Virus genome (UHGV): UHGV-0099331
Origin: a virus
Reading direction: 5' to 3' (one strand)
Length of the DNA: 18,860 bases
In this document: one piece after another, positions 1,765 through 2,470 of the stretch
Layout: each line of letters opens with the position of its first letter
Position numbering within the stretch: position 1 is the first letter of the stretch
Made by a program: the position numbers and the translations under genes
Notes under the pieces: model-generated
Database searches by the model: none
What the model saw: the letters and a program-made list of their open reading frames with translations, nothing else
What the model was told of the DNA's origin: nothing

Positions 1765-1793
1765 TACAAAAAACCCGCTCAGTGGCGGGTTGC
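1765..1793 (-). terminator. Rho-independent terminator (copy 1 of a duplicated terminator)
   Basis: Minus-strand hairpin AACCCGC-cactga-GCGGGTT followed by TTTTTTGT. The core is identical to the copy at 2441-2470. Confidence 0.6.
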
Positions 1794-1868
1794 TATCACA
1801 GCTATATATTTACTTATTATGCCGTTACTAACATTTATCTTCGACATATAATCGAAAACAAGGTTTAC

Positions 1869-2285
1869 TTAAAACTCTGCTTTCATTTTATCCGGGAATT
1901 TTTTATTTGCAGCATAATAACTACCAAGTACATAAGCGTTCATTTGCTGCTCTACATCAACCCGACATGCCGCACTAGAACAAGCTCCACTGATAAGCCC
2001 AAAAGAACTCCCTTTAGCAGAGAGATCAGCTTTGATTTCCTCTACAGTGTTTTTCCCCATAGCAACTACACACCCTGTCACAATATATCTAGCCTTCACA
2101 TCATCCATGCTAAGGATAGTAGTTTTCGCAATTTTGCTGTATCCATCATTTTTATAAACATCCATGGCAAACGCACGGCAATCTGTATAATACGGACTTG
2201 CTTTAACTTGCGAATACTCAGGTAATTTCATACCTGCACAACCAACTAAACAAAAACCTATCGCTGCTATTAATACCTTTTTCAT
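1869..2285 (-). CDS. Lipoprotein (moron); AT-rich gene
   Basis: N-terminus MKKVLIAAIGFCLVGCAG is a signal peptide with a lipobox (LVGC). GC content is clearly lower than the flanking phage genes. Start taken at the second ATG (2285); the ORF track begins at 2294. Confidence 0.75.
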   Translation of the reverse strand: MKKVLIAAIGFCLVGCAGMKLPEYSQVKASPYYTDCRAFAMDVYKNDGYSKIAKTTILSMDDVKARYIVTGCVVAMGKNTVEEIKADLSAKGSSFGLISGACSSAACRVDVEQQMNAYVLGSYYAANKKFPDKMKAEF

Positions 2286-2375
2286 TACAGTCATAACCTA
2301 GAAGCATCATTGAAACTAATTTATTAAATAATCATCGAGTTTCTGGAATACAGACGTTAACCATCTCTCCAAAAT

Positions 2376-2411
2376 CTAAAAGATAATAAGAAAAAATGTT
2401 TAACGCACCAA
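2376..2411 (-). promoter_or_regulatory. Putative sigma70 promoter of the lipoprotein moron
   Basis: Minus strand: -35 TTGGTG (2406-2411), 17 bp spacer, -10 TATTAT (2383-2388). Confidence 0.4.
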
Positions 2412-2440
2412 TCCATTTCATAGTTTCATGAGACATCTGG

Positions 2441-2470
2441 CACAAAAAAACCCGCTCAGTGGCGGGTTCT
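2441..2470 (-). terminator. Rho-independent terminator just downstream of Q (tR'-like; copy 2 of the duplicated terminator)
   Basis: Same hairpin as at 1765-1793 (AACCCGCCACTGAGCGGGTT followed by a T-run on the minus strand). Confidence 0.6.

Follow-up and report, generated by a model that had tools for sequence, protein, structure and literature searches.

The window analysed here is the whole 18,860-nucleotide (nt) stretch of the viral genome UHGV-0099331. Its open reading frames (ORFs) and profile matches identify it as a lambdoid prophage with the late genes on the minus strand. Directly downstream of the late antiterminator gene Q, a gene for a predicted lipoprotein is bracketed by two exact copies of a 24-nt terminator hairpin. 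Judged by its sequence, this cassette has the make-up of an ordinary, well-formed lambdoid moron (Hendrix/Juhala sense, reviewed in PMC3594210), namely an extra gene, a deviant base composition and a terminator of its own. Near-identical prophages occur with and without the cassette, and both end-points of the difference fall in the hairpin repeat. The explanation that we regard as likely for the data as a whole is that of a lambdoid moron which sits in the leader of the late operon and has been moved at its hairpin repeats.

From high to low coordinates, the direction of the minus-strand late genes, the order of features is the DUF968 gene, Q, the putative late promoter pR', the terminator tR' (hairpin copy B), an AT-rich leader, the lipoprotein gene, hairpin copy A, an ORF of 75 amino acids (aa), a DNA methylase gene, a third terminator and a holin gene. 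This layout was derived from ORFs, Pfam and PHROG matches and a terminator scan, and its synteny was checked against annotated relatives. The GC fraction is 0.305-0.42 over positions 1701-2500, compared with 0.46-0.60 on either side. The whole unit measures 677 bp, and its 653-bp interior codes for the lipoprotein alone.

The terminator repeat

A repeat search of the window found the exact direct repeat AAAAAACCCGCTCAGTGGCGGGTT at 1768-1791 (copy A) and 2445-2468 (copy B), 677 nt apart from start to start, with a weaker similarity extending for about 7 nt beyond it (caggtac versus ctggcac, 5/7). An exact repeat of 24 nt in 18.9 kb is far beyond what chance can account for. The first-pass annotation of the window had placed two copies of an identical hairpin core around the gene, at 1765-1793 and 2441-2470; these ranges correspond to the 24-nt core with a few flanking bases, and the description holds. 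Read on the minus strand, both copies have the sequence AACCCGC-CACTGA-GCGGGTT, with a run of six T after it in copy A and of seven T in copy B. RNA folding gave the energies listed in Table 1, and for copy B only one of 200 shuffled sequences folded as well. Copy A was also listed by the terminator scan. By their form, both hairpins can be read as canonical intrinsic terminators facing the direction of late transcription.

Filled and empty sites in Escherichia coli prophages

A set of 5,426 complete Escherichia coli genomes was surveyed. The cassette interior was present in 215 of them (about 4 %), in every case on the chromosome, and in 169 genomes the cassette was accompanied by both flanks. 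The full-length empty junction was found in about 260 genomes. Two matches (H6 and H7) contained both flanks at up to 99.8 % identity (H6 99.8 %) and yet spanned 545 bp. The empty junction of L001 reads ...caccaagtttacaggtac-aaaaaaacccgctcagtggcgggtt-cttaaatctt..., with one hairpin that has the left flank of copy A and the right flank of copy B, and in the empty-site prophages the 75-aa ORF follows directly after the single terminator.

It had been predicted that relatives lacking the insert would have a single terminator, and exactly one was found, with identical flanks, in near-identical prophages. The converse arrangement of two hairpins without the gene was not seen among the 80 loci listed of at least 120 hairpin-bearing viral loci, where all two-copy loci had the 677-nt spacing of the cassette. 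Because the filled and empty prophages are otherwise near-identical, the lipoprotein gene is an extra gene between normally adjacent genes. As a separate observation, an IS1B element interrupts the cassette region in NZ_OZ501612.1 (H1, H31).

Ownership of the downstream hairpin

Copy A, with its 7-bp GC-rich stem and six T, appears to be the 3' terminator of the moron itself, since it is kept with the gene in the different downstream context of L002, where a tRNA-Met/NanS-p context begins right past its T-run. The lipoprotein gene is followed by a hairpin despite differing downstream contexts in L002, L010 and L135. The loop of the upstream hairpin is off by 1 nt (CGCTGA or CCCTGA) in many E. 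coli cassettes, and copy A is constant.

The bracket could instead be a mosaic joint produced by ordinary module swapping between two phages, each of which would have contributed a common terminator, copy B coming with the Q-pR' module and copy A with that of the 75-aa ORF. This is in keeping with L004, which has copy A and its downstream flank without the lipoprotein gene, behind a different Q and a different cargo, and with the much larger number of genomes matched by the 75-aa module than by the cassette; the hairpin is also common in phage contigs, with about 88 combinations of flanks. We nevertheless think it quite improbable, as in L002 a different downstream module starts at the T-run and the lipoprotein gene still has copy A, and the Salmonella cassette described below also has a 3' hairpin 10 nt after the stop codon. 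The mosaic joint departs from the preferred explanation, a moron moved at its hairpin repeats, solely in which module owns copy A.

Probable origin and movement of the cassette

A homologue of the lipoprotein (76 % aa identity) is encoded in a Salmonella prophage (L010), between an unrelated Q (192 aa, DUF1133/lambda-Q-like) and holin genes. Between the upstream hairpin and the ATG, the Salmonella and E. coli leaders are collinear; they are 60 % identical overall, and in the hairpin and T-run 23/23 positions agree. The 3' hairpin of the Salmonella cassette, AACCCGC-ATTGC-GCGGGTT, is followed by a T-run and GTATCC. Because the cassette behind this unrelated Q has the two-hairpin bracket, the bracket would be older than the present phage lineage and travel with the gene, and it was probably not made in this phage. 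The same Salmonella prophage has a DNA methyltransferase remnant after the cassette (L010 5560-5812), of which only the C-terminal part is present; since it is truncated, a methylase module must formerly have lain downstream there.

Two leader haplotypes, ...GATAAGATTTAAGAA and ...GGTAAATGTCAAAAA, were each found filled and each found empty (L001, L050). A four-gamete pattern of this kind, spanning less than 40 nt, requires that the hairpin has been a site of recombination or of repeated gain and loss.

These results bear on the proposal of the first-pass annotation that the cassette was inserted by duplication of the resident tR'. In its one-off form, a cassette without a terminator would have duplicated the resident tR' in this lineage, in the manner of a long target-site duplication. 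The 24/24 identity of the copies in the window and the exactly single copy, with matching flanks, in the empty-site relatives agree with such an event. It is nonetheless unlikely, given that the Salmonella homologue follows a Q of another family and yet is preceded by the same hairpin and a collinear leader and accompanied by a second, related hairpin, that many E. coli cassettes deviate by 1 nt in the upstream loop although copy A does not vary, and that both leader haplotypes occur filled and empty. Nor do the ORFs and the repeat search point to a transposable element with target-site duplication: the 653-bp interior contains no transposase, and no terminal inverted repeats join the cassette ends. 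The duplication proposal is not upheld, and recombination at the hairpin repeats would explain the data better. In line with this, boundaries coincide with the hairpin in other combinations (L002, L004), and the slot varies in its cargo.

Putative late promoter and leader RNA

The sequence after Q comprises a -35 hexamer TTGCGT (2541-2536), a 17-nt spacer, a -10 hexamer TAAGAT (2520-2515), TTTCAC and AACGATGGG (2508-2500), a 9-mer that in lambda is the sigma70-dependent pause element (work of the Roberts laboratory). The corresponding lambda pR' sequence (NC_001416) is TTGACT, 17 nt, TAAATT, TGACTC and AACGATGGG, with the same spacing and an identical 9-mer. The pR' segment is kept in all ydfT-type relatives. 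A putative pR' is placed at 2541-2515, with an inferred start near 2508/2507. The hairpin of copy B ends about 62-65 nt downstream of this start, and because it would end the leader RNA of pR', copy B is assigned as tR'. The window would thus contain the features of a lambda-type late leader, with a promoter right after Q, a -10-like pause element and a downstream intrinsic terminator. By analogy with lambda 6S RNA and StxS, the pR'-tR' leader RNA would be constitutive in a lysogen.

The predicted leader RNA (2441-2507, minus strand) folds into two hairpins at -20.3 kcal/mol. A search of Rfam with window positions 1-4000 gave no family above threshold for it; the only matches were sub-threshold ones to Trp and Leu leaders, which are produced by the terminator itself and were discarded. 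A 37-aa ORF at 2332-2445 (minus strand) is annotated in phages Ayreon and phiSTEC1575, but is unlikely to be a gene because its frame is disrupted by 1-nt and 2-nt indels in the comparison with the leader in Salmonella. The published small RNA sRNA-17 of E. coli K1, which lies in an mEp460-like prophage (PMC7719688), was considered as a transcript of the cassette and rejected, as its sequence, taken from the supplement of that paper, is absent from the window.

Candidate promoter of the lipoprotein gene

A sigma70 consensus scan of the minus strand over 2295-2440 returned nothing at 9/12 or better. The best candidate, TTGGTG (2411-2406), a 17-nt spacer and TATTAT (2388-2383), lies under this threshold. 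The Salmonella cassette has TTGGTA, an 18-nt spacer and TATCAT at the same position, likewise 32 nt past the T-run, and this element scores 9/12 and was flagged by the scan. The two elements share 10/12 hexamer positions, against a leader background of 60 % (P ~0.08). The sigma70-like promoter ascribed earlier to the gene is thus retained only in weakened form, as a sub-threshold candidate with a Salmonella counterpart at the same position. A promoter belonging to the lipoprotein gene is suggested by these sequences rather than established.

The predicted lipoprotein and its family

The ORF starts MTVMKKVLIAAIGFCLVGC-AG, and the N-terminus of the product is MTVMKK-VLIAAIGFCLVG-C-AG. The start codon common to the window and Salmonella is the ATG at 2285 (138 aa) and not the one at 2294 used in the RefSeq annotation. 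A rule-based signal check identified a charged n-region, a hydrophobic h-region (Kyte-Doolittle mean of 2.76 across the 12 residues before Cys19), the lipobox LVGC, Cys19 as the predicted lipidation site and Ala at +2. Residues G18, C19, C39, C75, C105 and C110 are invariant in an alignment of eight homologues (54-98 % identity). A signal peptide and lipobox, as expected from the initial reading, are therefore present and conserved by the rule-based check and across the eight homologues. The strict PROSITE pattern PS51257 is matched by five of the eight homologues; a Cys at -4 is the sole reason why the window protein fails it. The predicted product is a Lol-sorted, periplasm-facing, helical lipoprotein of about 122 aa, in which the four additional invariant cysteines would allow two disulfides.

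The only family label obtained was phrog_4748, of unknown function. The family is very small, with nine clusters in 5.8 billion proteins in a word-indexed search, and an exhaustive profile search of 1.84 billion representatives gave eight matches, all of them plain family members or fragments. The lipoprotein had no match in Pfam, NCBIfam or PADLOC, and no sequence or fold similarity to Bor or other known phage lipoprotein families. Its AlphaFold2 model is all-helical (predicted local distance difference test score of 70.8) and had no fold match. No paper on the gene turned up in a literature search that used the protein accessions and looked for a lipoprotein encoded after Q. Our best guess, a tentative one, is that the protein acts at the envelope in lysogenic conversion or superinfection exclusion.

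Homologues in Rac-like early regions (L011, L133) and on a Buttiauxella plasmid (L012) are without the hairpin bracket. On this plasmid (5446-5745) and on metagenome contig L136 (751-1050), a second predicted lipoprotein of 99 aa (...LSGCAFPDKDGDFG...) is encoded 10 nt after the homologue. It had no Pfam or PADLOC match, and the two genes may form an operon.

Proposed mode of action and points against it

Following the lambda paradigm, constitutive transcription from pR' in a lysogen would stop at copy B and yield an RNA of about 62-65 nt. A weak sigma70-type promoter belonging to the lipoprotein gene, located 32 nt beyond the T-run, would drive its transcription, and the transcript would be stopped by copy A, leaving the downstream methylase and lysis genes silent. 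Upon induction, Q-modified RNA polymerase would pass copy B, copy A and the third terminator, and the lipoprotein gene would join the late transcript. The cassette itself would be gained, lost and moved between phages through recombination within the hairpin repeats of 24-31 nt.

Several points count against this account. Lipoprotein expression, termination and Q read-through are proposed from the lambda paradigm, the hexamers of the putative promoter match just 8/12 consensus positions, and their conservation is not significant at the P value given above. Homology and fold searches gave no support for any function of the protein. The direction of the event is not readable, because deletion between the repeats and insertion yield the same empty site. 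The 21-mer CCCGCCACTGAGCGGGTTTTT from the hairpin was also found in 52 species-representative genomes (L139-L190), including Pseudomonas, Marinobacter, Arthrobacter and metagenome-assembled genomes of Bacteroidetes, and because it occurs in such distant taxa, part of the hairpin sharing would be due to convergence and not to exchange.

The hairpin in other genomes

The same 21-mer was present in at least 120 viral contigs (L013-L132), in contexts that include several different pR'-type leaders, and two loop-permuted control 21-mers gave no matches in viral contigs. The hairpin is strongly over-represented in viral contigs relative to these controls, but the occurrences in distant taxa rule out common ancestry for all of them, and it was rejected as a single homologous element. 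A larger mobile unit defined by a motif after the T-run (RT.GCCYG...GAAAA) was also rejected, as nearly the same pattern is found at other terminators of the same loci. We prefer to regard the hairpin as a common terminator, spread among phages of enterobacteria and convergent in some of its occurrences, rather than as a mobile element of a special kind.

It is very improbable that the hairpins are primarily sites of a dedicated recombinase, comparable to integron attC sites or belonging to a small mobile element, and not terminators. The clean presence or absence of a segment bounded by structured repeats could be expected of such sites, as could the at least 120 viral-contig matches against 0 and 0 for the two controls. 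The hairpins nevertheless have the canonical terminator form of a 7-bp GC-rich stem and T-run, and the empty-site hairpin lies at precisely the place expected of tR'. Neither an integron-type integrase nor a transposase is encoded nearby, the only integrase of the window (13897-15081) being at the far end of the prophage. The pattern after the T-run also occurs at unrelated terminators of the same loci, and the presence of the hairpin in distant taxa is consistent with convergence.

The cassette in Stx phages and other cargo in the slot

Fifteen Stx2c phages and phiSTEC1575-Stx2k have an identical cassette (98-99.8 % nt identity), with its two hairpins, in the interval from Q to stx2 (loci in Table 1). 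Phages Ayreon and mEp460 also have the cassette, which is thus already in deposited phage genomes, and the Ayreon record annotates both terminators. These loci agree with the original description of a moron just behind Q, where some lambdoid phages have toxin or other conversion genes; in Stx phages this slot is that of stx. With the cassette between Q and stx2, Q would have to pass an extra terminator before the toxin genes, a point to be considered in models of how toxin expression depends on Q in Stx2c and Stx2k phages.

A wider proposal would treat the tR'-type hairpin as a portable recombination joint that, in function like the PeSL cassettes discussed below, repeatedly loads and unloads genes in the pR' slot, the lipoprotein as a new envelope factor, for instance in superinfection exclusion or host interaction, and the cassette terminator, as a second one between pR' and stx2, as an influence on how tight the Q-dependence of toxin expression is. 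We consider this combination unlikely.

Other cargo was found in the same slot. In L004 it is a 205-aa ORF (3023-3640, with weak WYL similarity), upstream of the same copy A and 75-aa module. A 176-aa ORF with a different 3' terminator occupies the slot in L005 (2714-3244), an AraC-family regulator gene in L191 (1683-2630), and tRNA genes together with NanS-p in L006 (2387-2638). The tR' hairpin of L005 has lost its contiguous T-run.

Other features of the window

The features around the cassette are listed in Table 1. The Q protein also has a DnaJ-type CXXCXGXG zinc-finger region, and its RefSeq relatives are labelled ydfT or antitermination protein.

Table 1. Positions of the cassette, its neighbours and the related stx2 loci
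Feature	Position	Strand	Basis and remarks
DUF968 gene	3341-4336		
Late antiterminator Q, QuuQ/YdfT type, 250 aa	2575-3327	minus	PF03589 Antiterm, E = 6.7e-53; phrog_127, 1.5e-107
Putative late promoter pR'	2500-2541	minus	Comparison with lambda pR'
Terminator copy B, tR'	2444-2468	minus	Exact repeat; -14.1 kcal/mol; terminator in Ayreon annotation; sole hairpin of empty-site relatives
Candidate moron promoter	2383-2411	minus	8/12 consensus positions
Lipoprotein gene, 141 aa	1869-2294	minus	ORF; phrog_4748, E = 7.5e-91
Terminator copy A, 3' of lipoprotein gene	1768-1791	minus	Exact repeat; terminator scan; -13.5 kcal/mol; terminator in Ayreon annotation
Chi site GCTGGTGG	1727-1734	minus	34 nt past copy A, oriented like the late transcript
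75-aa late-leader ORF	1442-1669	minus	phrog_331; relatives labelled hypothetical or TrmB-family regulator
N6/N4 DNA methyltransferase	239-1291	minus	PF01555, E = 1.9e-42
Third terminator	217-232	minus	Terminator scan
EssD/S21-type holin, start only	from 164, runs off the window		Synteny with annotated essD-rrrD lysis genes in L001, L003 and L007
Stx2c/Stx2k cassette-stx2AB loci	L008 833-2073, 4001-4646; L009 1194-2434, 4075-4500		

Twelve Chi sites (GCTGGTGG) are located at 247-8659, of which nine point the same way as late transcription (minus strand); dinucleotide shuffles gave an expectation of 0.44 sites, and the remaining 10 kb of the window contains none. This enrichment suggests that recombination or RecBCD protection has been selected for in the Nin, Q and late-leader region. 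In L052, the break in downstream context comes immediately after the Chi site next to copy A. The density of Chi sites is compatible with frequent host-mediated recombination, but nothing links Chi to the cassette event, and a role in cassette exchange is speculative.

Four iteron-like repeats with 15-nt spacing and overlapping inverted repeats occur at 7589-7663, inside a gene for a 313-aa replication-initiator-like protein (7020-7961, minus strand), and this array is probably the replication origin of the phage. The 3' end of the integrase gene (14967-15038, gene at 13897-15081) is repeated over 72 nt, at 72 % identity, in a second, int-like remnant 1.5 kb away (16508-16579), a sign that an older element may have used the same attachment site.

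Comparison with known systems

Current concepts are unchanged by the cassette, and its value lies in the empty-site evidence, the terminator-bounded mobility and the position between Q and stx2. It is a clean example, dated by comparison, of how morons are built and moved, with both end-points of presence and absence in the 24-nt terminator repeat across hundreds of prophages. Should the lysogen express the lipoprotein, a new function in lysogenic conversion or exclusion would be a cheap candidate to consider.

The cassette shares with the lambdoid morons HK97 gene 15, lambda bor and lom the extra gene, the deviant composition, a flanking terminator, a promoter-like element and carriage by a prophage. 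The product of lambda bor is likewise a predicted lipoprotein, although without sequence or fold relationship to the protein described here. The cassette differs from these morons in that it lies in the pR' leader and not in the tail or post-lysis region, and in that its 3' terminator copies the tR' of the operon. The stx and tRNA cargo of Stx phages occupies the same slot after Q, pR' and tR', where Q antitermination boosts expression; compared with stx, the cassette has a small lipoprotein gene instead of a toxin and adds its own terminator, a second stop past pR'. The predicted short pR' transcript ending at tR' resembles lambda 6S RNA and the StxS RNA of Stx phages (PMC7547250), but at about 62-65 nt it is much shorter than the leaders of 194 nt in lambda and 258 nt in Stx phages.

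The PeSL cassettes of T4-type phages consist of non-essential ORFans surrounded by repeated stem-loop terminators, with the end-points of insertions, deletions and replacements between close relatives at the repeats (PMC2839356, PMC4122927). The present cassette resembles them in that its end-points coincide with repeated stem-loops, which suggests recombination between repeats as the shuffling mechanism. The PeSL repeat, however, has a strong early promoter, whereas the repeat described here has only the hairpin and T-run (24 nt exact, about 31 nt if mismatches are allowed), unique sequence 32 nt beyond it holds the promoter-like hexamers, and just two copies are present at the locus. As its repeat is without a promoter, the cassette is not a PeSL.

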